Source: Macrostomum lignano (taxonomy: Eukaryota). From it: a stretch of DNA of 64,000 nt. Position numbers and translations under genes: made by a program. The stretch's first letter is position 1. Every line of letters starts with the position of its first letter. This document shows positions 5,854-62,237 of this stretch, piece by piece. The notes below the pieces were generated by a model that saw nothing but the letters and a program-made list of their open reading frames with translations, did not search any database and was not told where the DNA came from. Where the stretch lies: positions 248,001 through 312,000 of the forward strand of contig NIVC01000349.1 of NCBI GenBank assembly GCA_002269645.1. The letters are read 5' to 3'.

Positions 5854-27650
<21,797 letters not shown>

Positions 27651-44887: not shown

Positions 44888-47800
44888 CTATGGATGGAGG
44901 GTTGGCGCCGCCCAGGGAGGTCCCCCAGTGTCGCCAGCAGCTATGGTGCTCTCTGGAAAGGAGAGTTCAGCCCTGCGGGTGGCCCGAAGGTAGCGCATGA
45001 GCTGATTAAAGTTTTCGGGTTTGCACGCTTCAGTAATAGATGTGTGTGGCCCGAGGTAAGTGAGTCTGGCCTGCGTGAAGGCGGGACAGATGCTGACGAA
45101 ATGCTCAGCGGTTTCGTCACCTGAGTTGCAGAAACTACAGGTGGCGTTGGTGGCGTTGCCCTGCAGGTACTGGTGCCTGGAGAAGCAGCCGTGACCAGAG
45201 AGGGTCATGGTGGCAGCCCGGATGTCTCTGCGCGAGAGGCGCAAGAGGAGCTTCCGGAGCTGGTGAGAGGGCTGAGGGACAGCGCCTCTGGATTGCCTGC
45301 AGTTCGTGCGGTTCGCCCAAGTCGAGCGGTGCTGAGTCCTGATCCACGCTTTGATGCGCGAGTCGATGACACAGCCAGGAATCGGGACAAGAGGTTCGGG
45401 GCCGAGAAAGGAGCCGGAGGCACCAACTTTTGCAAGGTTGTCAGCCAACTCATTTCCTCGGATCCCCACATGCCCCGGAACCCACTTAAGGGTAATTTTG
45501 TTGGCGGAACCCAACACATTGAGGAGTTTGATACAGTCAAGGACTGTAGCAGAGTTGGTGCTGCAGCCACTGATGGCGTGCAAGGCAGCTTGGCTGTCCG
45601 AATGGAAAATGATGTTCTTACCAGTAACGCCAGTGGCGAGAAGCTCTGCAGTGCAGGAGCTGATGGCCAGAACTTCATTTTGGAAAACACTGGAGTTGAC
45701 CCCAGTGTATTGAGCGTGGGTAGCGATGACCCTCCCGTTCAGAAAGATTCCAACACCAAAGCCGGTGTTGGCTGACTGCTTAGAACCGTCGGTGTAGCAA
45801 TGAAGCTCACCAGGGTTCCAATGGTCATTGATGTTATCGCGCGAGTCGATAGCTACGGAGTAGCGCTGTCTCAGGTTGAGCGTTGAGGCAATGCCATTGG
45901 TGAAGACGCGATTGGCCTGACACTCGTTGAGAAAGTTGAGGCACAGATCGCTATGCGGGACAAGGTTCCGCTTAGCAGGTGCTCTCATGTAAATGAATTT
46001 GACGCCGGCATCAATTAGACGCCGCGTCGTTCTAGCCGCCTCACCCCTGATGAAGAGGTCAAGAGGCGGAAGATTAAGAAAGGCCCCCATGCCAGCAAAG
46101 GGCGTAGACCTGGTGGCGTTGCAGATGAGCCTACACGCTCTGCCTTGGATCGTGTTGAGCAGGTCTGCATGGCTTTTGACCTGGGTAGCGCTAACCCAGA
46201 CAACAGAGGCGTACGTAATGGCAGGTCTAACTACGGAAGTATAGATCCACCAAAGCCGCTTTGGGGATAGACCCCAAGAAGTGCCAAGTGCTCGTCGGAG
46301 CTGGGCCAGGATGGCTGAGGCACACTTAGCTTTTGCTTTCACGTGGAAGGACCAGTTGAGCCGGTGGTCAAGTGTGACCCCGAGACATCTGGTCTGGTGC
46401 ACGAAGGCAATATCTCTGCCGTAGAGCTGCAGAGGACGTATGTTCCAGCATAGTCTGCTGGTAAACATAATGGCAACGGTTTTGGGCTCAGAGAGTTCCA
46501 AACCATTGTCATTGGCCCAGGATTCTGCTTTGCGGATAAAGCTCTGCATCAGATCCCTGAGCGTGCTGGGAGACGGTCCTGCCACAATGGCCGTGACGTC
46601 ATCAGCATACCCGACTTTGAAGACGGGGTCAGGTCGGGAGTCACTCAGAAGAGCGTCCATGACCAGGTTCCAGAGCGTCGGGGTGAGGACTCCGCCTTGG
46701 GGTCCACCCTTACAGACTCTGGTGGAGGCAGTTTGCCCAAGAAGTTGGGCAGTGACCGTACGGTTGGAGATCATGTACATGATCCACCGTATGAGGGTAG
46801 CATGAGCTTTGCGATTTTGAAGGGCCCTCTGAAACGCTTCAAAGATAACGTTGTCGAAGGCGCCAACAATGTCAAGAAAGAGAGCCAGGGCGTAACCGTC
46901 ACCCAGTACCGCCCGTTCAATCTTTTCGACAATCGCATGCAGGGCGCTGTCAGTCGACCTCCCGGTACGGAAGGCGTGCTGATTATTGCTGAGGGGCATC
47001 GCTGTCAGCTCGCAGGAGAGCAGCCGCCAGAGAATAAGCCTCTCAGTGAGCTTAAGCATTGCTGACGTTAAGCTAATTGGCCGGAAGGCCTTGACGCTTT
47101 GGTAGTCACCCTTCCCAGGTTTGGGAATAAAGACTACTCGAGCTTCAGTCCAGCTTTTGGGAACGTATCCCAGCTGGATAGAGGCCCGCATAAGATTGCG
47201 GGTGAGTCTCAGGAACGAGGGTATCTTGGCTGCTTCACGAAGGAGAACAGGGTAGATACCATCAGGTCCAGGAGATTTGAAGGGTTTGAAGGTTCTGACC
47301 GCACGAGCGATTAGGTCTTCAGTGACAATGCCCGCCGCTAGGGTGGCTCCATCCATCGAATGGTTGGGCTCCGGTCTAGCAGTAGGTACCCTCGGGAAGA
47401 ATGTGCTAAGCATATGCTGAAGCACTTCTTCAGGGTCTTTAGTAAGAGAGCCATCATCTTTTTTGATCATGGCTAATTTGGACATTTTGTCCATTGTAAG
47501 GGCCTTGACAAGCCTAGAAGTAGGTCTGTCTTGATCCAATTCATTGCAGAATTGGCGCCACTTACATTCCTTGGCCTTGCGCACTTCAGATTTGAAATTG
47601 CGGGAGGCTTGCCGGAAAAGCTCCATGTCCTCCGGGTTTCCGGTCTTCATGGCACGGCGATGAAGGCTTTTGGCCTTCCGCCTGAGTTTCCCCAGCTCCG
47701 GGTTCCACCACGGCGCCGAGGTCTTGCCTCTGTAGGCGCGAGCAGGACAAGCCGCTTCGTAGGCTGCAATAATGCAACCTGTCAGCGTCTCAGCCATATG

Positions 47801-48627
47801 ATCCACATCCTCGCAGGTCTCAATCGGACGTAAGTCCGTGAGTTCCTGCAGGTGCAGATCAAGGGCAGCCTTGTAGGCCGCCCAATCAGTGTTGCGGATA
47901 TTGCGTCTCCAAGTGATCGGAGACTGGGTTTTAGTGTCCGCGATATTAAAGGCAATAAAGCAGTGGTCAGACAGGGAGGGCTCCTCAGACCAGACTCTCC
48001 ACTCCTTGACTCTGTCAAAGAGTCTTGGGGTAACGAGTGTGGCGTCGAGGACCTCGGTCCATCTGCCATTATTAAAGGTAGGAGTGCTGCCGCGGTTGCA
48101 GAGCATGAGGTTTGTGTTAGAGATGAGGGCCAGAAGCTCCTCTCCTCTAGTGTTGGTATCTTTGCTGCCCCAGTGCTTGTGGTGCGCGTTGAGGTCGCCC
48201 CCTAAGCACAGCTCAGCGTTCTGGGACTCGCAGTACTGCGCAAGGCGCAGTAAACTCTCGGAGCAGGGTCTCTGTCGCCTGGGATATAAACCGAGGCAAC
48301 AAGACACGTACGCGGAGAGAAATGATTAGATTGGATGACGCAAAGGTCTCCATCAGAGAGATCAGTCCTCAGCCAAGCCTGGAGATGGCTAGCAGCGAGG
48401 ATAGCCGCTCTAGGGCGGCTGTTCCCCGGGCCACACACATAAAAATCAGAGTAGCCAGAGGGAATGTTGGGCAACTTACCGTTGCGCATCCAGGGTTCCT
48501 GGATCAGGATGAGGCCTGGCCTGTACAGCTCAGCAATCTTCATCAGATTTACTGACGCAGATACGCAATGCTGTAAATTTATTTGCAGACAGAATGTCGC
48601 TCCTTTGGCAGCGTGGAGCTTAGTCAT
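44888..48627 (-). CDS. LINE ORF2: AP endonuclease, reverse transcriptase, RNase H, C-terminal CCHC; one frameshift near 48258
   Basis: LQINLQH, LIQEPW, GGDLNAHH, SDH (APE); KGGPQGGVLTP, YADD (RT); YTDGSK, SDSQAAL, WVPGH, NELADNLAK (RNase H); CSFC..ETAEH..C; ORFs 48202-48627 and 44888-48307 join with one base missing at CCGAGAGT. Confidence 0.9.
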
Positions 48628-48650
48628 ACTGTATTAAATGCAATATCTGG

Positions 48651-50228
48651 CTAGAGCCCAGGGTCATCAAGGAGACTTGGACAACAGATCGTCCTCGTCC
48701 CAGGCCGCTGGGGCTTGACTGGGAGATGGGAGTTGGTCGACGTCCATGGCCTCCTCACCCCCACCGGCCCCCCAGCAGACTCCTCAGGCTCCGATGACAG
48801 GATGGAGGAAGCTTCCTCACCTGCATCTTTACCTTCAGACCCCACCAAGGTGGCCGAGGAGAGCTCGGATTCCGAAGACCCGGCCTCGTCCTCAACTCCT
48901 TCTCCGACTGGCAGGTTTGGTTCCCGGGGCTCGGCCGGAGCCGTTACCGCGGTCGCCGAACTGCTGCTAGCAGAGGGGCGAGATGCAGCTTTGGCTTTGG
49001 GATCGGCTTGCGCCTTTCCTTGGGCCTTAGACTGCGCCCCGCTCTTGCCGGAGATGCCGGGGTTGGCAGTAGCCTTCCCTTTGGCAGACTTTCCTCGGCG
49101 CAACTTGAGCTTGAGGGCACCCAGCTGGAAAGAGGATCCATTAGGGTACCGACTCGCCCAAGTGCTGGAAAGGCCGAGGACAATTGAGTTGCCCGTCTCC
49201 CCCCTGCGGACTTTACGGTGATACACCAGTCCACTAGCAGGGAGGTCGGGGTTCAGACGCAGTAGGACCCGGCGAATAACGTCTGGTCCAGCTGCGGTGC
49301 TCTTAGCAGGGACGAAAACCACATAGGGTATCGTCTTTGGACGCTGGCCCTCGCGAAGAAAAAGAGCTCCGCCAAGGTCAGCATCCAAGGAGACCGTCGG
49401 TAGCCGCTGGAGCAGCCGCCGAGCGTCCTCCTCGCTGCTAGGAGCAATAAGAACGAATGTGCTTCGCAGCACCATCCGCTCAACGCCGATGGAGATTCCC
49501 TCCTCGACAGTCAGCTCAATCAGATAGGAGTCAACAGCACTCCACACTTTTTGAAGCTGATCAGTGGTCCAGTCCTGGTCGCGACCTTGGATGATCACTC
49601 CCGGGATTTTGGCCTTGGCCTTCGCCGCAAAGGTAGCTCCCGAAGGAACCTCCTTGTTGGCAGTGGCCATTTGTTGCGCCGTGGTTTCGGCCTCAGCAGC
49701 CGCGGCAGCAGCTCCAGGGAGCGCCGCCGCTGAACTACTGGAGCTTCCACCGGCCGGCCCGCCTGGTTGCCTTGGGACTCCAGTCGCTTCAGCATCCATG
49801 GTGGACGCCGCCGCTTTGGCCCCCGCAGCTCCCTTCTTGGCCTGCCTTTTGGCGCGTTGTTTAGCGCGTTTGCGCTCAAGCCGAGCCCGCTGAGCTTCAT
49901 CGGATCTGCCAGATTTGGCCGGTCCTTTAGGCTCAGAGCTCGCGGTTCCCTTAGATCCACCAGCGGAGCTGGCAGGTCTTAGGGTATTTTGAGTTTGGTA
50001 GCTCTGGTCGGATCTGCCAGCAGAGCCAGCCGGTCCTTCCTTTGCCACAGTTGAATCAGTCGGTTGGGATCTGCCAGCAGGGCCGGCCGGTCCTTCGGAC
50101 TGAGGTTGGGGTTTAGAAGGGTCCCCATCCCTAGAAATAGCTTGTTTATCCATAGTCGGCTCGAAGGCCATGATAAAAGGTTGGTGGGCTACCCTCAAAG
50201 GGGCGCGGTACCCACCCGGCCGCTCCAC
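48651..50228 (-). CDS. LINE ORF1 (gag-like, 525 aa)
   Basis: Long intact ORF directly upstream of ORF2; basic and low-complexity ends, no clear CCHC knuckle. Confidence 0.8.
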   Translation of the reverse strand: MERPGGYRAPLRVAHQPFIMAFEPTMDKQAISRDGDPSKPQPQSEGPAGPAGRSQPTDSTVAKEGPAGSAGRSDQSYQTQNTLRPASSAGGSKGTASSEPKGPAKSGRSDEAQRARLERKRAKQRAKRQAKKGAAGAKAAASTMDAEATGVPRQPGGPAGGSSSSSAAALPGAAAAAAEAETTAQQMATANKEVPSGATFAAKAKAKIPGVIIQGRDQDWTTDQLQKVWSAVDSYLIELTVEEGISIGVERMVLRSTFVLIAPSSEEDARRLLQRLPTVSLDADLGGALFLREGQRPKTIPYVVFVPAKSTAAGPDVIRRVLLRLNPDLPASGLVYHRKVRRGETGNSIVLGLSSTWASRYPNGSSFQLGALKLKLRRGKSAKGKATANPGISGKSGAQSKAQGKAQADPKAKAASRPSASSSSATAVTAPAEPREPNLPVGEGVEDEAGSSESELSSATLVGSEGKDAGEEASSILSSEPEESAGGPVGVRRPWTSTNSHLPVKPQRPGTRTICCPSLLDDPGL

Positions 50229-51073
50229 CTGACCGGGCAGTAGGCCAATAGCACCCTCAAGGCTGGCCCGACACCAGGAGGGGGACCGCTTGCGACCGGA
50301 CTACTCCCCGGCCTTCCAGCCCATCGGCACGGTCAACACCTTAGGCATTAGAGAGTACGTTGAGCAGTACCACGGCCTGCAGGTTGGCGAGCCAGACCCG
50401 CATACCCAAATTCGGCCGAAGCCACTGGATAGGGTCGCCAGCGCCGGAGCCCAGTCTGTCCAGCAGCCCTAGGGACTGCCTTGAACACACGCGGGGACGA
50501 GTACCCTGGGTCGACTTGCGAGACAGCGTGGGGGGGGGGTCTGCGGCTGCCAGAGGCAAATAGAGGGTGCAGACCTCCCACCAGCCTTGACCTGCTGAAG
50601 ATAGGGGCAGGCGTGAAGCATCGCAGACCTTAGCCCATGGGCCTAGTCTGTCTCATACTTCAGACATACTTCAGGGGGTGGGGCAATAACCACCAACCAC
50701 CAGGGCCATATGACTAACCACCAACCATATGGGGGTTTTAGGGTGAAGAGAATCTTTATTTGGGTCTCCAATGAGCAAATAAAAAATAGAAAAATGAACT
50801 AATCATGAAAATTGATATAATGTTCTGAAGAAAGTTGAAGAAATTTTTGGTTAGAAAATAAAGCTTATTATCAATAAAAAGAAGATAAAATTTACTTTCC
50901 AACAAGTGTTTCTATGCTATAATAGGTGCAATAACAAGAAAGCTATATGGGCAATCCTATACTTCCGTTCGGTAAATTATTTTCACATTTGAATTCGTAC
51001 CACCGAGTCAAATGACGTCGATTGGCAATGTGTCTATGGCCAAAAGTTTGAGCGAACAGAGTTTAAAGGGGTG

Positions 51074-51424
51074 CAAACTATTCTAAACTGGACTATAGTC
51101 TGAACCATAGACTGTTTGGCTTCTGACTGAGCCATAGATATTTTTTCCGGTCGGAAGCACACTGGTCCCTGTACAAGAGGAATGGAGATGAAGGAGTAAG
51201 GAGATGAGGAGATAAGGAGATGAAGGATGAACGAGTAAGGAGATGGATCAGCTTCTCTGTTTGAACTGACTGGGGCTAGGAAAAAGAATGTTTCTTATAT
51301 TGTTTGTGTTGCCCATTCTTCTTGTACAGGGACTAGTGTGCTTCTGACTGGAAAAAATATCTATGGCTCAGTCAGAAGCCAAATAGTCTATGATTTAGAC
51401 TATAGTACAGTTTAGAATAGTTTG
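51074..51424. mobile_element. MITE-like inverted repeat with ~110-bp arms
   Basis: CAAACTATTCTAAACTG...GTCCCTGTACAAG is the reverse complement of 51313-51424 with several substitutions; GA-rich spacer. Confidence 0.75.
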
Positions 51425-53223: not shown

Positions 53224-53797
53224 GCTGCCACCAGGATTATCCTATTAATAAATTATGAGTTTATCAATCTTAGAATAATCCGAGAAATGTTTCTTAGAAT
53301 TGATCTGAGTATATATCTTAGTATTTAGTCGGAGTATTTAGTCTGAGTATTTAGTCTGAGTATTATTCTTAGAAAACTATTAGCTCTTAAAGATTTTATT
53401 CCTCTGTTATTCTGGTAGTGTTCTATTTAATAATTTGGCCTGAGCGGTATTTTGGCTTACTGGTATATGTATTTCATGTACTTTGCAAGTCCTTGGGCGT
53501 TACCGAGATCAGAGGGTCACAGCCTCCGGTTATTCTTACACGTATGACTTCAGATCTACTTCGTATTCTCTTACTACTCAATACTGCTGCTTCTCAATAG
53601 TATGTACTGTATACGCTTCAGTCTATTTCGCTCTTACTTCTTAAAAGGAATTAACACAGAAAACACTTCTTCAACTCTTATTTTCTTGGAACTTTTACTA
53701 TTCGCTATCAATCACTTATTGTGGAATCGCGATGTGCGAGGTTGGTCTCCTCTCCGCTGAATTTGCTTCTATTTATACTAATTTTTACGATGATTTA
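53224..53797 (-). mobile_element. Probable remnant of a second LTR element (LTR-like segment plus PBS) hit by the Gypsy insertion
   Basis: GCTGCCACCA (PBS on the minus strand) at ~53224-53233; minus-strand TATAAATA near 53770-53777. Confidence 0.4.
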
Positions 53798-54343
53798 TGG
53801 ACAAGTCGTGGTACCTGCGGTTTCGGCTACTGGTTTTCTTATTTGCTACTAAGGATTTTACTAGTGGATTATTGTCTGCTGTACTGATTTGAGATTTGGT
53901 AGAATCGCTGTCACCAGGTTTCCTGCTTTCCCTAATTCTAGTACTTTAGATTAAAGAAGTGAGTCAGGACACCAAAGATTATATTTAACAGTTGGAAATA
54001 TTTAATAATAAAGAGAATGTGTACAAAAGGTTATTTATTCCCTAGTTTTATTCCCGTTGTGCGTTGGGCAAGACTCCCAATATTTAGAGGCAAGACTCCT
54101 CCGTGCAAGCCTAACCCTTATATTTCCCTTTCTTACCACTTCTTCGTGAACTCTCTAAGTTAAACAGGAGAAGACACTCCAACGAAGGCGTTTTTTTTCC
54201 CAAGAGCCCAACTGCTCTGTAGTTCTAAAGGAACCCCAATTTTATCCACTTACCCCCGCTCTAATTATTTCCCCGGGTTGAAACTACTAAAAGCATATTT
54301 GAACCTGCAAAATTTCCCGTTCCTAAAATAATGCCCTACTACA
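53798..54343 (-). repeat. 3' LTR (546 bp)
   Basis: Direct repeat of 61681-62237; about 6 substitutions plus one 11-bp indel; PPT (minus strand AGGGGGAGG) at 54344-54352. Confidence 0.95.
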
Positions 54344-54875
54344 CCTCCCCCTCGCTACAAGAATGTGCAAAACCCCCTTTTGTACATTAATTGTTGTGTG
54401 TATTTTATTCGAGAACAATGTTAAGTTTTCCACAAGGCTGTGGTATGCTGAATAATGTCATAGTTTGGCTAAATAGTTGCACGCATCAGCTAGCATAATA
54501 AAATCGCAATGGCATACAGTTCATGGTTAATTGGCTGGATAATGGCTTAATGATGAAATTGTAGTGCGCGTACAGCTTTCGGTTCAATGGTTAAATGGGT
54601 GGTGCAAAAATTTTTGGCAAGTGGGACATTGTTGGCGCAAGAAAAAGAAATATTATAAAGAATATTCGCGTGAGCAATAGTTTTGGCTAAGAAGGTAGGA
54701 TCATGTATGGCAAGTAGTAAACTGCTAATAACAAACAACAAAAAAACAAAAAATGCTGTGTCCTAATAAAGCACTGTGTAATTGTTAAGGCAGCCTATGT
54801 AAATAATATTCGTTCCAAGGGATGGTAAAATATATTTGGAAGTGTCTGTTATTAATTTCAGCTTATTAATGTGAA

Positions 54876-55712
54876 CTAATCGGTGTGTACCGGCCGTAGG
54901 TTCACCGTATTCTGCGCCGACAGGTATAGAAGCCCATTGATGGGTACCATTCTATGGATCGGATCGAACTGTTCCGCCAGGTACTCGAGTAGTTCTGTTG
55001 TGGCCCTCATGCATCTCGGCCCTCGGGCCCTACTTTCTGCATATTGCAAGCAGTAGCTACACGCCATTTCGAAGCATTTGATGGCCTCGTCGTTCGTGGC
55101 AGTGGTCAGGAATGCGGCACAGGCCTCCGGTAGATTGCGCTCGAACTGGCCGGTTTTACCCGTTCGCAGGATCTTCTTTTTGAGAGCGCGCCGGCACTGA
55201 CGAAACTTGGCCTCTTGCCCGCCGGGGCTCGTCTGCTGTTCGGCCGGGCAGTCCTCTGTGCGCGGCTCCTCACTGGTATCCGCCCTGAGCAGAGTCGCGT
55301 AATTGATGTCGTGGCTCGAGTCTAACGCAGGCCCAGGCTGATCTTCCTCTGGTTGGCGTACCGGTTGGCATTCAGTTGTCTCGTCTGACTCGTCAACGAG
55401 GCTTACTCCTTCTTCATGCTGCCAAATCTCTTCCATGAAGCGCGCCATCTCATCTCGAAATCTCTCCTCTTCTTGTTTGGTCGCCCTCTCTAAATCTTCT
55501 AGATTCACATCTACGACTAATCCTCCTTCTGGTTCACTGTCCTCTTCTCTTGGTTCCAGCTTCCGCCTCTTATGTTCTCCCTCGATGACCTTCGTGCTTG
55601 CGTCATGGACAGCCCTAATTCGTGGAGGTTCATTTTCTTCTTGGCCTTCATTCCTCCTCTTCTGTCCATAGATCTTCTTTTTAGCGTACACTCGCAACGG
55701 GGCGTCGGCCAT
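54876..55712 (-). CDS. Third ORF of the Gypsy element (278 aa), unknown function, not env-like
   Basis: ATG 2 nt after the integrase stop; intact; acidic/basic N-half and Cys-containing helical C-half; no signal peptide or transmembrane segment visible. Confidence 0.75.
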   Translation of the reverse strand: MADAPLRVYAKKKIYGQKRRNEGQEENEPPRIRAVHDASTKVIEGEHKRRKLEPREEDSEPEGGLVVDVNLEDLERATKQEEERFRDEMARFMEEIWQHEEGVSLVDESDETTECQPVRQPEEDQPGPALDSSHDINYATLLRADTSEEPRTEDCPAEQQTSPGGQEAKFRQCRRALKKKILRTGKTGQFERNLPEACAAFLTTATNDEAIKCFEMACSYCLQYAESRARGPRCMRATTELLEYLAEQFDPIHRMVPINGLLYLSAQNTVNLRPVHTD

Positions 55713-55714
55713 TG

Positions 55715-57600
55715 TTAATTAGTTTTAGGCTGTAAGAGGTTAAATGGGTTAAACAACTCCGCTATCCTCTGTACATAACTTTTCTGGTTTAGCCTGATAG
55801 TTAATCTATCTGGAGCATGACGCTCTCTCGCTGGCCTAGCTTCTAAATTAATCCCTAGATTATTGTTATTATTTAATTGTACTGGCATAACTCCTTGTAC
55901 ACCTACTAAATTATTTTGATTATTATTTTGATGCTGCACTTGTTGATTTGGCACTAACTGCACATTATTTTGATTTTGCACTGGCATAAACTGCTCATTA
56001 TTTTGACGTTGCACTGGCATAAACTGCACTGCGTCTTCGTACTCGTCTTCACTTTCTGAGTCATTGTACACATTCGGCTGGCTATTGGCTAACTGTTCCC
56101 TATTGCACTGCTTCTTTTGTTCCTTTGGCTTAGTACGAGCTTCTTCCTCCTGATAATCTGCTTGTGGTACTTTCATTAAATTATCCCTATGCATAATAAG
56201 TTCTTCCTTCCTAGCCTTCTTATTTTTGGTGACTGGTCTAATCTTAAAGACTACTTCTGATAATTGTTCTACAATTTCGTAAACTGCCCTTTGCTTTATG
56301 TGAAATTTGTTAGCCTCTGTGTTAGCAATTACTGGATTATTGATAAATACTAAGCTTCCTACAGACAATATTTTCGGCTTAGGCTTATTAGAGTACTCCT
56401 GCTCACGGTTTTGTTGCACTAATTTTAATCTCTTTCTTGCTAGTTCTTGGCCTTCCTGCAGATTCTGCTGATGATCCTGGACATAAGATGGCAGGTCCTG
56501 AAACTGCTTTGGCTCGTTCAGCTCATTGTCACAGGGCATTCTGGCCTCTCGTCCAAAGACTAAATAGTGCGGACTAAATCCTGTGGCAGTGTGCGTGCTG
56601 GTTCTCAGAGCTGTTATGCAACCTGGCAACAGAACGTCCCAGTTGGAATGCTCCTTCTCCAGTAAACAGGTGAGAATTGATTTAATCTGCTTATTAAGGT
56701 TTTCTACTAAGCCATTGCTCTGCGGATGATAACTAGTTGTTCGAGTGTGTCTAATGCCATAGAGGTCTAAAAATTTCTTAAAGGCCCTACCAGTGAACTG
56801 TGTTCCCTGGTCTGTGTGAATCCATTGTGGAATCCCGAAATCAGCGAAAACTCGTTCTTGTAAAATTTTGATAACTGTTTTAGCCTTCTGATTCCTAATT
56901 GCGAATGCGAATGGAAATTTGCTAGTGCTGTCTATGACTGAAAGTATATATTTGTTTCCTGATTTGCTAGTTTGGCCAATAGGTCCTATTAGATTTATGT
57001 GCAATCTACCGAACGGTTCGACTACAGGATAGTTCTGAATTGGTGCCTTAATTCTTCGTCTAGTTTTGCTTTCTAGGCATGATTTACATTTGGCTACGTA
57101 GCGTTCAACTGCTGTTGCTAATCCTGGCCTCCAAAATCGAATTTTAATTCTCTGATAAGTGTTATCTCGACCTAGGTGTCCCGCTAACGGTGAATCATGG
57201 AATTGGTGAAAGACTTCACTATCCAGAGACTTGGGCAACACTACCTTTGGATCAGTCTGCCCCATAGATAAGTCTACTTTGAGTACACCGTCCTCAATTC
57301 TGAGCAACTCATAGTAACCTAAGAGGTTCCTACAGTCGTGGGTTAACTCTAGTCGTTCTTGAAATGTCGGTTTAGGCGAGTCATTCTCGATTAAATTTCT
57401 AACAAAGCCTACCGCCGGATCGGCTAGCTGTGCTGCGATCAATTGGTCACGGCGAACTGGGCTACGGAGATAGTCACTGAGCAGGGCATTGCATGCAGGC
57501 GGATTTCCGGTTTTAGGCTCCTGTCCCTGTCTATTGTCTAGCCTACTGCTACTAAAGATCGGAGTATTGTGTCGGTTCGTGACAGTGTCTTGTGACGAAC
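55715..57600 (-). CDS. Gypsy integrase region, out of frame with RT-RH
   Basis: HDSPLAGH...CKSC zinc finger, [19 protein letters not shown]; first catalytic Asp reads HINLIGP (D to N); frame change in the RH-IN linker. Confidence 0.88.
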
Positions 57601-60242
57601 AGCATGACGGAACTCCTGCTCGAGCTACAGGTTTCAGCGAACGCGGAATTGCCTGAGCTGACAGTAAAAGCTGATGCTGGGTCTGTATTCACAGTTGCCC
57701 TACAGCTTAGCGACCTGGCATGTGGGGACATCTCTTCCGGGTGAGGATCAGGGATCCTGGATAGAGCGTCAGCATTCACATGTTTAGGGCCACTCCTATG
57801 TTCTATCTCAAAATCAAATTCGGAAAGTCTTTCGATCCAACGACCTAAAATGTCTGTCTGTTCGGTTTGGCGAAGCAACCAGGTTAGGGCATTGTGATCA
57901 GTGCGCACCTTAAAATGTTTTCCTACGAGGTAAAATCTAAAATACTTCAGCGAGTCAACAATCGCTAGAAGCTCCTTCCTCGTAATCGGATATCTCGTTT
58001 CTGACTGCCTCATCTTCCGACTATAATACGCGATCGGCCTTTCTATGCCGTCGCTCTGAACTTGATTCAAGACCGCCCCAATTCTGACATCTGATGCATC
58101 AGTGTCTAACACAAAATAAACTTGGGGGTCTGTATTAAACTCTGGGTAAGCAAGCACTTCTTCGGAACACATCCGTTCCTTCAACGACTCGAAGCATTCA
58201 TCATGAATCCTGGTCCATTTGTCCTGGATACACTTGATGTTCTTCTTAGTTAACTCACAGAGTGGTGCTGCTACCTCGGCAAAATCTCTAACGAATTTTC
58301 TATAGTAGTTACAGAGTCCGAGAAAACTTCGAAGCTCTGTCACAGATTTAGGTTTCGGCCAGTTCCTAATTGCTTCTAATTTTGACGCATCTCTCTTAAT
58401 TCCTGTTTTGCCTATGACGTGTCCTAAATATTGTAGCTCTGATTTGAAAAGGTGACATTTCTTAGCCTTTAGTTTCATGTTAGCTTGTATTAGTCTCTTG
58501 AGCACTTCCTTCAGGTGTTCTAAATGGGCTTCGAAATCTGTACTGTAAACTATTACATCATCTAAGTAAGCTATGGCGAACTTTTGTGCAATGTCCTTAA
58601 GAACTAAGTTCATGCACCTTTGGAAAGTTCCTGGAGCTCCTTGCAATCCCATTGGCAACACTTCGTACTCAAACGAGCCTCGATGTAAAGTTGGAAAGCT
58701 AGTCTTGCACTTATCTTCTTCCCTAAGAGCTATCTGATAATATCCCGAAAATAGATCTAACGTAGAAAATTGACTGGCTCCATGGAGACATGAGAATGTT
58801 TCATTGATATTAGTTATTGGATACGGAAAGTACTCAGATTTGTTATTTAGTGCTCGATAGTCGTTAACTAATCTCAGCGAACCGTCTTTCTTAGGTACTA
58901 TGACTAATGGAGTCGAGTACTGCGAGTAACTAGGCCTAATTATGCCTCTAGCCAACATGAGATCCAACTGCTCATCTACCTCCTTGATCCAATGAGGTGG
59001 AATTTTCCTAGCTGGTATCTGAACTGGGTTGTTGTCCTTCAAGATAATTTCATGTGTGACTAAATGCGTTCTGCCTAAGTCCAACTCGTGCTGCGAGAAA
59101 GCTGCTGAATGTTCCTTGACGACCTCGATCACCTTTTGTCTCTGCTCCTGAGTCAGTTCATTTCCTATGTTAATCTCACTAATCCAATCTTCTGACTTCT
59201 CCTGCACCTGACTGATCTTTTCTCTACCTTCGCAAAACTGCGTGTTCCTATTCCGCTCTTCTTCTGGCTGTTCCTTGAGATAGTTAAGCTCGCTAGCTAA
59301 GAGTGGTTTAGCCATCCCTACTAATGCTGATGCTGGTACTCTAGCTTCCTGTGAACTGGTGTTGATCACTTCTAAATAAGCTTCCCCTTGTCTCAGAGTT
59401 ACTAAACTTGGCACTACAGTTACCTTCTCTGTTCTAGTCTTTAATCCTGATCTGAGTGGCTCAACAACTGATGGCACTCCGAAATTAGTTTCACTACCTG
59501 CTGCTAATCTGACTTTGACTAATCCTGAACTATTGGCTGGAACTGTCGTCTTTTCTGCGACATAGATTCTCCTAACCTGAGGCTTAGCTCTGGTTGATCG
59601 AAGCGGAATTCTAGTTCCTTGTTTCATGGTCAGCATTCCTGCATCGAAGTCAATAGTAGTACAATAATTTTGGACAAACGTCACACCTATTACATTGTCT
59701 ACATCTGCGTCACATAAGAGAAACTCAACTTCTTCTTCGAAATCGCCAAATGTTGCCTTAATAACTACGAAACCCTTAATTGGAATAGGTTCTTCCATAA
59801 AAGAAACAATTCTATTGTCCCAATGCTTAATTAGATGCCTATTCTTGCCAGTGAAAAGATGCTTCAAGGTTTCGCGTCCTAAGATATTTCTATTACTGCC
59901 AGTGTCTAATAGATAAACTATTTCCTTATTTAAAATGCTGCCAGTGATGTACGGATCATAACTTTGTTTTTTAGTTTGTTCAGTTAATTTTGGTTGTTTT
60001 AGCTGCTGCTTGCTAGAATAAGGTTGCTGTTGTGGTGCGGTTGAAAAGTGCTGAGAATAAATATTTGGCTGATTAAATGATTGATTAAATGATTGCGCAT
60101 GCGTACTGTTATACACTGAAGAATTCAATTCACTATTTACAGAAAAAGTATCGCTGCTATTTACAGGTTGTGAGGCTACAGACTGTGAGGGATCTACTGC
60201 TGGAAAGCGTTGCCTCCGACGCTTCCGTCTATTCCGTTTCCC
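57552..60242 (-). CDS. pol: Gypsy Pol: protease, RT, RNase H (entered by -1 frameshift)
   Basis: YLLDTGS protease, [37 protein letters not shown]; frame open back to GGGAAAC in the gag tail. Confidence 0.9.
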
Positions 60243-61225
60243 GAATTCTGCTGCTGAGGGTAATGCGGCTGCTGATACTGCGGCTGCTGATACTGCGGCT
60301 GCTGATACTGCGGCTGCTGATACTGCGGCTGCTGATACTGCATTTGCTGCTGAGCCGGGTACCTAAGCTGGTTCTGCGGATGTGGCTGTCTACAGTTCTT
60401 AGCTATGTGACCTAGCTTGCCACACCTGTTACACTTTACTGGGGGACGCCCTTGCTGATTCTGGCCTTGCTGCTGCTGACCTGACGGCTGCTGCTGCTTG
60501 ACCTTTTGCTCAACGTTCTGGTGGTGTCGGAGTAACTCCTGAAGCACCTTCTGCTGGTTTTCTAGCGCCTCACCCTGCTTGCGGACTAATTCCTTCAAGC
60601 TATTCTCAGCTTCTTCTCCTCCAGTTGCCTTACACTGCTGCGGATCTCTACCTCGGCGAGACATAGCGTACGCCATTTCAATACGTCGCAAGACTCGACG
60701 TGTCTCTTGAAGCGAGTTTACCTGAGCTAGCAGTAGCTTTTCTCTAGTCTCTGGGGCAACCCTAACACCTCTAATGAACTGTTCCACCACCTCTTCCTGT
60801 CTCTGATCGTTAGTTAGATGGGGAAACGCCCTGCATGCTAGCTCTGTTAGCTTCTCAGCGTAGTCATCAGTGCTCTCAGTTTTGCACTGGAACCTACTAC
60901 GGAACTCTTCCCTAGCTTCTTGAGCACTACCTACATGCGTGAACCGCTCGATTAGCCTATCTTTATAGTCTGCGTATGCTAGATTAGGATCTAAATTTAG
61001 CCTTGTCACGATAGCGAACGCTGACTGAACATCTAGGTTAGACAGTAGCTCATTCTTCCACTCAGCTGGGGGTATCTCATCTGCGATACACCTCTGCTCA
61101 AAAGCCTGAATCCACACGTCTATATCCTGATTAGGCGTGTACTTTTGGATCCTAATATGTTTCCTAATGTCTAGCCTGTCTCTAATGCCTTCAGCCAGTG
61201 CTTCTACTACGTCATTCGCTTCCAT
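60194..61225 (-). CDS. gag: Gypsy Gag (343 aa)
   Basis: Zinc knuckle CNRCGKLGHIAKNC; capsid-like helical region; QQPQY repeats. Confidence 0.9.
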   Translation of the reverse strand: MEANDVVEALAEGIRDRLDIRKHIRIQKYTPNQDIDVWIQAFEQRCIADEIPPAEWKNELLSNLDVQSAFAIVTRLNLDPNLAYADYKDRLIERFTHVGSAQEAREEFRSRFQCKTESTDDYAEKLTELACRAFPHLTNDQRQEEVVEQFIRGVRVAPETREKLLLAQVNSLQETRRVLRRIEMAYAMSRRGRDPQQCKATGGEEAENSLKELVRKQGEALENQQKVLQELLRHHQNVEQKVKQQQPSGQQQQGQNQQGRPPVKCNRCGKLGHIAKNCRQPHPQNQLRYPAQQQMQYQQPQYQQPQYQQPQYQQPQYQQPHYPQQQNSGNGIDGSVGGNAFQQ

Positions 61226-61668
61226 ATTAGTTTAATTTTAGGTTGGATTTTAGAATTAACGCTTCTGGTTTAATAATTTTGGTCAGTAAATTGGCAAGAC
61301 TCCAAATTTAGCTGCTAAATTGCCTAATGGTAAGACTTTAGTTAATAAAGTAGCAGTGACTCTACTTTTATTACTTCCGCCTTACTTCTGGTCTTAATTG
61401 AGACCTTACTAATCTTCTAGCGAAGAAACTAAGTTAGAATTCCTTTCAGGAGCGTTAATCCGTTCCTAATCCGTTAATCTCTTAATCTGAGATCAGACAA
61501 TCTTAGATCAACTGACTATGTACATTAATTCTCTAATTTAGAACCTAATTAGTAAATTTGTGTTAGTTTTAGTTCTAATTTCAGCACATAGGAGTTAATT
61601 CGTTGATCCCTTACTAATCCTAAGCTCCAGTCTAATGTATGCGCTTCTCGGGTATTCTAATCCTCTAA

Positions 61669-61678
61669 GCTGCCACCA
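61669..61678 (-). other. Primer-binding site TGGTGGCAGC (complementary to a tRNA-Leu-type 3' end)
   Basis: 2 nt after the 5' LTR; tRNA identity recalled from known tRNA-Leu 3' ends, not searched. Confidence 0.75.
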
Positions 61679-61680
61679 AT

Positions 61681-62237
61681 TGGACAAGTCGTGGTACCTG
61701 CGGTTTCGGCTACTGGTTTTCTTATTTGCTACTAAGGATTTTACTAGTGGATTATTGTCTGCTGTACTGATTTGAGATTTGGTAGAATCGCTGCCACCAG
61801 GTTTCCTGCTTTCCCTAATTCTAGTACTTTAGATTAAAGAAGTGAGTCAGGACACCAAAGATTATAGTTAACAGTTGGAAATATTTAATAATAAAGAGAA
61901 TGCGTACAAAAGGTTATTTATTCCCTAGTTTTATTCCCGTTGTGCGTTGGGCAAGACTCCCAATATTTAGAGGCAAGACTCCTCTGTGCAAGCCTAACCC
62001 TTATATTTCCCTTTCTTACCACTTCTTCGTGAACTCTCTAAGTTAAACAGGAGAAGACACTCCAACGAAGGCGTTTTTTTTCCCAAGAGCCCAACTGCTC
62101 TGTAGTTCTAAAGGAACCCCAATTTTATCCACTTACCCCCGCTCTAATTATTTCCCCGGGTTGAAACTACTGATAGTAGGGTAAAAGCATATTTAAACCT
62201 GCAAAATTTCCCGTACCTAAAATAATGCCCTACTACA
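61681..62237 (-). repeat. 5' LTR (557 bp)
   Basis: Direct repeat of the 3' LTR; followed on the minus strand by AT and then the PBS. Confidence 0.95.

Follow-up and report, generated by a model that had tools for sequence, protein, structure and literature searches.

Background

Little has been learned about the accessory proteins that LTR retrotransposons of animals encode. CERV, encoded by the Ty3/gypsy element Cer1 of C. elegans, is an example with a shown function: the protein is described as nuclear and needed to export the genomic RNA (PMC10309623), and its mRNA is both spliced and SL1-trans-spliced (PMC10309623, PMC3315495). For the Juno and Vesta elements of bdelloid rotifers, published work describes third open reading frames (ORF3s) that encode captured enzymes (DEDDy, GDSL), transmembrane proteins or coiled-coil proteins (PMC5408684). 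The third ORF of Tor elements of Oikopleura is described as expressed by splicing or from an internal promoter among relatives (PMC4402516). Plant elements are described with extra ORFs between pol and the 3' LTR which are conserved and of obscure origin; some are nuclear and an accessory-like role has been proposed (PMC7264820). The premise of an earlier sequence-only reading of the DNA studied here, that third ORFs of Gypsy elements are usually env, is therefore too strong, as varied non-envelope ORF3s figure in the accounts of PMC5408684 and PMC7264820.

The host of the element described here is the flatworm Macrostomum lignano, for which PMC8629364 gives [T/C]TNCAG as the top acceptor motif in trans-splicing of the spliced leader (SL), and 30 % as the share of trans-spliced genes. 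We did not find the present ORF3 family in print and a search for Macrostomum retrotransposon ORF3s was empty; earlier classification work may mention the ORF. In the text searched, PMC12801592 does not mention the family and uses the word 'ORF' 0 times, and PMC13524379 does not mention a Macrostomum host. Non-envelope third ORFs being already known, what is new here is an allele-swapping cassette together with three apparent expression layouts in one clade.

Results

An intact third gene in a young Gypsy element

The window is the whole stretch of 64,000 nucleotides that was analysed, and all coordinates are positions in it. Its reverse strand carries a Ty3/Gypsy LTR retrotransposon (53798..62237, -) with two LTRs that have TG...CA ends, a 4-bp target duplication (TTTA), a primer-binding site and a polypurine tract (PPT). 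Pfam finds gag followed by pol in the order PR-RT-RH-INT, with clear matches for gag, RT, RNase H and integrase and a weak match for the protease (E 0.068). Database proteins nearest to the element carry the label Macrostomum lignano. The element is a young copy. The 5' LTR (61681..62237, -; 557 nt) has 96.9 % identity over 557 with its 546-nt partner, the pair being 6 substitutions and one 11-nt indel apart; a second comparison, whose span takes in 2 flanking columns, counts 8 mismatches. A contig joint from 53792 to 62237 spans the whole element in two runs and fits an empty site. No heat-shock element was found in the LTR.

The primer-binding site TGGTGGCAGC (61669..61678, -), which we take to be tRNA-Leu-like, precedes gag (60194..61225, -) with one CCHC knuckle. 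A slippery heptamer, G GGA AAC (60236..60242, -), would likely serve a -1 frameshift into pol; it is kept in 4/4 other copies checked, from both families of copies. In the window copy, a frameshift between RNase H and integrase splits pol into two ORFs, one for protease, RT and RNase H (57552..60362, -) and one for integrase with a disordered tail (55715..57688, -), so that ORF3 is intact and pol as assembled is broken. ORF3 is followed by an AT-rich 3' UTR (54344..54875, -) that travels with the ORF3 type and contains the polypurine tract (54344-54356, -) and, near its end, a hairpin (54363-54387, -) common to 4 of the 5 types compared.

Elsewhere in the window we noted a non-LTR retrotransposon (44888-50300, -) with a 549-aa ORF1 that has no Pfam match and a 1145-aa ORF2 with endonuclease-RT-RNase H, a dynein heavy chain gene (7481-23774, -) with very large exons and tandem repeats between them, and a MITE-like inverted repeat (51074-51424) with 112-nt arms of 93 % identity.

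ORF3 encodes a predicted soluble protein

ORF3 is a 278-aa ORF in the env position (54876..55712, -). Its translation agrees with the motifs quoted in the sequence-only reading, and its ATG (55710-55712) does come 2 nt after the integrase TAA (55715-55717). The same reading was right to call ORF3 richer in GC than pol, with 0.544, where 837-nt windows of pol range over 0.38-0.48 with a mean of 0.43 and the adjoining integrase end is at 0.39; gag is at 0.50, which ORF3 exceeds only slightly.

On 19-residue hydropathy, values for membrane helices usually exceed about 1.6. The best value is 0.50 in the window ORF3, which has no hydrophobic N-terminus, as expected from the earlier claim that it lacks a signal peptide and a transmembrane helix, and 0.19-0.65 in 28/28 open ORF3 copies. 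None of these 28 copies has a signal or transmembrane stretch, and thus none has the signal peptide and transmembrane anchor of an envelope protein. Each has 0-2 glycosylation sequons.

In an AlphaFold2 model based on 16 sequences, the N-terminal half of ORF3 has low confidence with one helix at residues 71-100, and a helical domain is predicted at about residues 163-265 (54918..55226, -), a block with pLDDT mostly 87-97. The helical C-terminus claimed earlier thus stands, but the cysteines of its CFEMACSYC stretch are not a conserved cluster: among the 16 aligned sequences C213 is kept in 11, C218 in 15 and C221 in 8, and none of these is invariant in the C-domain of the sister (spacer) lineage described below. 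A zinc finger is ruled out because the cysteines are not conserved. The helical domain contains no conserved catalytic or metal cluster.

Residues 1-33 (55614..55712, -) belong to the disordered region and hold the conserved motifs MADAP, KxIY, RR and ENEPP. Of the basic clusters that had been called NLS-like, the N-terminal one holds up, with K12-x-I14-Y15 in 16/16 and R19 and R20 in 15/16 each, but KRRKLE is confined to one of two families. A basic K[KR]x[KR] cluster is present in 23/28 copies and the other 5/28 are without the pattern; no export-signal pattern is common to all ORF3 types in the 28 open copies. The N-terminal KxIY(G/S)xxRR (55680-55712) is presumably similar to the motif with which Haspin and Wapl bind Pds5, and we take ENEPP to resemble KEN-box contexts. 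From sequence and model, ORF3 is predicted to be a soluble protein, with a disordered arm carrying conserved short motifs and a small helical domain.

ORF3 is conserved by selection and has no recognised relatives outside its clade

A genome search with ORF3 gave 113 matches with 33-100 % identity. We surveyed the integrase-ORF3 junction in 74 stretches: 57 fit the junction pattern and correspond to 31 haplotypes, 8 further junctions were recognisable, 7 stretches were without the region and 2 were not displayed. With ORF3 open over at least 235 aa in 31 of the 57 junction loci, the gene is not one that is disrupted in most copies. Pol is in one frame in only 5/28 copies with an open ORF3, so breaks are common in these copies generally.

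Nor is the evolution of ORF3 neutral. dN/dS between ORF3 types is 0.05-0.34 where dS is estimable, and 0.04-0.19 for the C-domain in the 4 estimable of 7 pairs. Nonsynonymous differences are fewer than synonymous differences in 77/78 pairs from 13 ORF3s (p ≤ 1.2e-4, the pairs not being independent), and the lone nonsignificant pair is near-identical (dN/dS 0.52, p 0.19). We are practically certain that ORF3 is a real accessory protein gene.

We found no Pfam family for the window ORF3, for 16 aligned members or for the sister domain, nor any Pfam match in ORF3 to DEDDy, GDSL or DnaJ cargo. PDB sequences contain no match for ORF3 or the sister domain. In an Atlas search the best ORF3 score (0.78) is below lead level and the sister domain has no usable match. 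No homologue came from a word-index protein search with a single ORF3 and a profile, which covers near lengths only, and none from metagenome contigs; viral contigs contain 2 matching stretches, with 0 loci returned, and exact look-ups found 0/11. A representative-sequence search with the tight-lineage ORF3 gave 2 matches; remote homologues in other flatworms may lie beyond its reach. One host gene model labelled lectin-domain (P0005, UniRef) begins with an ORF3 fragment and is probably a mis-joined annotation. A match of ORF3 to a WD40 repeat protein was judged spurious.

At the level of folds, Foldseek gave no match at E ≤ 0.001 for the ORF3 or sister models. The best VIA row is a Cul3 repeat for the window ORF3 (Z 6.5, rmsd 4.5, 112 aligned) and the Gle1 CTD for the sister domain (Z 7.8, rmsd 3.8, 116 aligned); both are within helical-bundle noise, and cullin mimicry or an export-factor fold are leads only for these models. 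The ORF3 model is a small helical bundle, and no clear match to an env or fusogen appeared among the families listed in the fold searches. Taken together, a dN/dS well below 1 and the lack of an env match or a known family bear out the proposal of a novel, non-envelope, selected accessory protein. The suggestion that the gene was captured fares worse, as no cellular homologue appears in the genome or the databases searched.

ORF3 and the 3' UTR form a swappable cassette

The 28 open ORF3 copies fall into 9 types at less than 80 % amino-acid identity. Synonymous sites are saturated between these types, of which there are at least 9, whereas the gag-pol backbones that carry them are 95-99 % identical. 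Nucleotide identity to the window copy is 96-97 % in RT, 53-67 % in the C-part of ORF3 and 50-62 % in the 3' UTR for 14 of 15 copies of the first family; the remaining one has the window copy's ORF3 type. Since deeply diverged types sit on near-identical gag-pol, we consider ORF3 and the 3' UTR a swapped cassette. Between types of the first family, pS is 0.01-0.08 in the integrase core and 0.69-0.86 in ORF3, and in the second family the values are 0.04 and 0.77. By this contrast, the ORF3 types predate by far the backbones on which they are found. ORF3 types only 33-45 % identical are paired with integrases 97-98 % identical, and several types are found in young copies with LTRs 99-100 % identical.

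Recombination between cassettes takes place in the conserved flanks and inside the N-terminus. Among 21 cassettes typed in the first family, two recombinants (L032 and L071) have an exchange within the N-terminal part of ORF3, and no separation of the C-domain from the 3' UTR was seen; this linkage could come from low similarity alone. One copy, L041, has about 570 extra bases in the 3' UTR before the 3' LTR compared to copies of the same type. The second family (L045-L064) is 93-96 % identical to the first in RT/RNase H, about 82 % in gag and 72-79 % in integrase, which means that exchange between families has reached pol modules as well. Balancing selection, and template switching that homogenises only similar regions, are equally open readings of the cassette pattern.

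A conserved acceptor-like site precedes the ORF3 start

The sequence-only reading had proposed that ORF3 is expressed by termination-reinitiation or splicing. We found a stop-start gap of 1, 2, 3, 4 or 6 nt in 54/57 junctions. The variable gap rules out a readthrough or frameshift fusion in the tight lineage, to which the window copy belongs. The UGGGA reinitiation motif is present within 110 nt in 0/57 junctions. Because the gap varies, UGGGA is absent and an acceptor-like site is conserved instead, we no longer regard termination-reinitiation as the main route.

This predicted 3' splice or SL trans-splice acceptor (55730..55756, -) consists of a branch-like TTTAAC, a pyrimidine-rich zone and TTACAG. 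In the window copy, TTACAG is 17 nt above the ORF3 ATG and the AG-free zone is 25 nt. A YTNCAG lies 13-18 nt above the ATG in all 57 pattern-picked junctions, the picking of which partly favoured YTNCAG-like sites, and in 5 of the 8 further ones, giving 62/65 with 3/65 lacking it. Across junctions the AG-free zone is 23-30 nt. The acceptor is the best of the 16 YTNCAG sites of the window element (pyrimidine share 0.71, AG-free 25 nt, branch motif in 1/16), and the ORF3 ATG has a purine at -3 in 57/57 junctions. The acceptor block shows no significant excess of synonymous constraint in 4/4 comparisons (p 0.10-0.17), and another Gln codon of the block is nearly as invariant (28/30).

Contigs span ORF3 and run across its border with integrase in 4/4 runs, in a strand-blind comparison. 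Among the contig rows listed for six runs guessed to be RNA and one of unknown kind, none shows a joint at the acceptor or a loose end there with the spliced leader, which is not evidence of absence. None of 72 genomic stretches is a retrocopy starting at the acceptor. A TATA-type internal promoter was rejected for the tight lineage, as only 1/13 has one within 400 nt.

One explanation for the conserved site is that ORF3 of the tight lineage is expressed by SL trans-splicing, which we put forward tentatively on the motif. Expression by cis-splicing, which the same sequence would allow, is a less probable route; an internal promoter is unlikely and reinitiation is the least likely of all. The published SL ends in AUG, from which a mini-frame would run to the integrase stop, in which case the ORF3 start would need leaky scanning or reinitiation.

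Sister lineages have other layouts

The tight, spacer and fused lineages are separated with strong support in an integrase tree of 38 rows, and the host clade stands well apart from 6 database proteins. In one member of the clade, L109, the 3' LTR begins right after integrase and there is no third ORF.

The spacer lineage has an open ORF3 of 289-454 aa in 14/16 loci, with the layout of the tight-lineage protein and often an acidic ENE-x-P-like motif. These ORF3s start 223-535 nt after the pol stop, and the spacer holds upstream ATGs. A TATA is found 72-106 nt above the ATG in 7/15 loci and a CCAAT in 11/15, while YTNCAG within 30 nt of the ATG occurs in 1/14, close to the roughly 4 % that its density over the element predicts. 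A TATA/CCAAT promoter of its own is frequent for the sister gene, so that expressing ORF3 separately looks like an ancient trait of the clade. Four of the 15 spacer loci (L093-L096) have paired sites 180-250 nt above the ATG beside CCAAT, which we assume to be RFX X-box-like; such pairs may point to expression in ciliated cells or sperm.

The spacer C-domain has at least 150 matches in the genome and a dN/dS of 0.03-0.28 in 5/5 pairs. An hhalign comparison of the tight and spacer C-domains gave E 2.5e-4 and a score of 28.8 (probability only 43 %, and 21-43 % over the hhalign comparisons made), compared to 16.6 for the best of 30 column shuffles and 14.4 for the reversed profile; global alignment gave E 0.013. 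The ORF3 HMM detected 0/48 sister ORFs, the relation being picked up by profile-profile comparison alone. Both C-domain models have four helices in the same long-short-long-medium order and have 24 of their top 50 structural neighbours in common. The profiles and models suggest that the helical domain of ORF3 is likely homologous to the spacer-lineage C-domain.

In the fused lineage (L108, L110-L129), the integrase tail runs on in frame into an ORF of about 245 aa, and one copy has a 1798-aa frame. The ORF is under purifying selection and compared with both profiles does not rise above shuffles (E 0.087 and 0.35). In 13/14 distinct loci an internal Met is preceded at 7 nt by TTCCAG, whose codon phase differs.

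An antisense spliced transcript crosses the element

On the opposite strand, a GT..AG intron (56670..60166, +; joint 56669 to 60167) of an antisense transcript removes the protease through the integrase core. The joint is found in contigs of three RNA-guessed runs from three studies, with depths of 22.6, 14 and 12.6 and shorter sides of 24, 39 and 30 nt, and is not listed in a fourth run of unknown kind. Both families retain the donor and the acceptor, which match host motifs. One run has a loose end at the donor, perhaps reflecting a second acceptor outside the element. The antisense RNA could be encoded by the element or stem from a silencing locus by read-through. Across the join there is a Leu-rich frame of 96-106 aa in 10/10 first-family and 1/6 second-family copies and is probably a shadow of the CAG-rich gag.

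Discussion

As the third gene of a Gypsy lineage in a flatworm, ORF3 is conserved and under selection, and we propose that it encodes a soluble, non-envelope and likely nuclear protein. The splice acceptor just above its ATG would open a short mRNA of its own; the short motifs of the disordered half may recruit host factors and the helical domain may dock a partner. Such an adaptor could help the element RNA past host nuclear controls, either export retention or silencing. Weighing the whole analysis, we place this chain ahead of its rivals while thinking it may well be wrong, followed by a pure host antagonist and then by an integration tether. The protein looks like an adaptor because it appears soluble, with conserved short motifs, a small helical domain and no conserved catalytic or metal cluster. 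A trans-acting regulator also fits because promoter-like boxes often separate the sister ORF3 from Gag-Pol. A strong acceptor inside the genomic RNA would create a retention problem as in Cer1, which favours an export or anti-silencing adaptor. Folding the 3' UTR of 5 types gave no Rev-like conserved fold (the best of 37 folding windows has z -2.2), and the only structure common to the types is the PPT hairpin.

It is conceivable that ORF3 instead acts with Pol in integration or in the particle, as a chromatin tether or integrase cofactor made in small quantity by reinitiation past the integrase stop or, in the fused lineage, by fusion to Pol. The 1-6 nt gap in 54/57 junctions, the fused-lineage ORF in frame with pol up to 1798 aa and the basic and acidic disordered segments, which would suit chromatin binding, are all in keeping with such a role. 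We nevertheless consider it improbable: UGGGA is absent from the 57 junctions, reinitiation would have a very low yield if pol itself needs a -1 frameshift, and ORF3 types of 33-45 % identity are combined with integrases of 97-98 %. Moreover, the sister ORF3 lies 223-535 nt from pol with upstream ATGs between, and the fused-lineage ORF matches the ORF3 profiles no better than shuffles. Alternatively, ORF3 may directly antagonise a fast-changing defence, such as piRNA or chromatin silencing, its types being kept like serotypes by frequency-dependent selection. This would account for at least 9 saturated types on a homogenised backbone, several of them in copies with LTRs 99-100 % identical, and the antisense spliced transcript suggests control of the family at the RNA level. 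However, all measured dN/dS values are well below 1, with saturation blocking a test for positive selection, and template switching that homogenises gag-pol would alone give the same pattern without balancing selection. RT/RNase H is homogenised between families too (93-96 % compared to 72-79 % in integrase), and no conflict with the host is needed for the cassette pattern to arise. Antagonism as the sole role is thus also doubtful, though it ranks before the tether.

A reading of ORF3 as a decayed envelope gene, or as a piece of a host gene that was captured and has no regulatory role in particular, is very improbable and in our view largely refuted. ORF3 does occupy the env slot with a GC content unlike that of pol. 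Yet signal and transmembrane stretches are missing in 28/28 copies that have 0-2 sequons, Pfam offers no family for the window ORF3 or the 16 aligned members, and the sole informative database match is a mis-assembled host model with an ORF3 fragment. Long-term purifying selection and a clade-wide domain also speak against a passenger. Returning to the nuclear adaptor, a broader version of it would combine a retrotransposon operon resolved by SL trans-splicing with a hitherto unknown nuclear class of counter-defence or export ORF3s, kept as many ancient serotype-like alleles that recombination moves among near-identical gag-pol backbones; we regard this combination as a long shot.

ORF3 and its relatives form a new protein family with more than 200 genome matches in a flatworm with working transgenesis (PMC12801592). 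The natural ORF3 alleles on a common backbone are a ready comparison for studying function and a possible race between host and element through a swappable module. One clade seems to reach its 3' gene by an acceptor, an internal promoter or fusion to Pol. If SL trans-splicing does free a gene downstream of pol, the element would be using host splicing in the manner of an operon, for which our literature searches gave no precedent.

How does ORF3 compare with known systems? Like the extra ORFs between pol and the 3' LTR of plants, it is a conserved gene of obscure origin with a possible accessory role; the nuclear plant examples are antisense and no homology to ORF3 was found (PMC7264820). With Juno and Vesta it shares a family-specific, non-envelope ORF after pol, there a separate transcription unit (PMC5408684). 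Unlike them, ORF3 has no known domain and comes as many deep types on one backbone. CERV is likewise a lineage-restricted Gypsy accessory protein that combines helical with disordered regions and has a candidate NLS, and its host also uses SL splicing; its own features are a length of 517 aa, an overlap with gag, five exons, a Cys loop, a G-protein-like domain and a shown role in export (PMC10309623). ORF3, by comparison of the descriptions, follows pol and has one exon and no conserved Cys cluster. The third ORF of Tor is a membrane glycoprotein, which ORF3 is not, but the tight and spacer lineages seem to share the alternatives of splicing and internal promoter described among Tor elements (PMC4402516).
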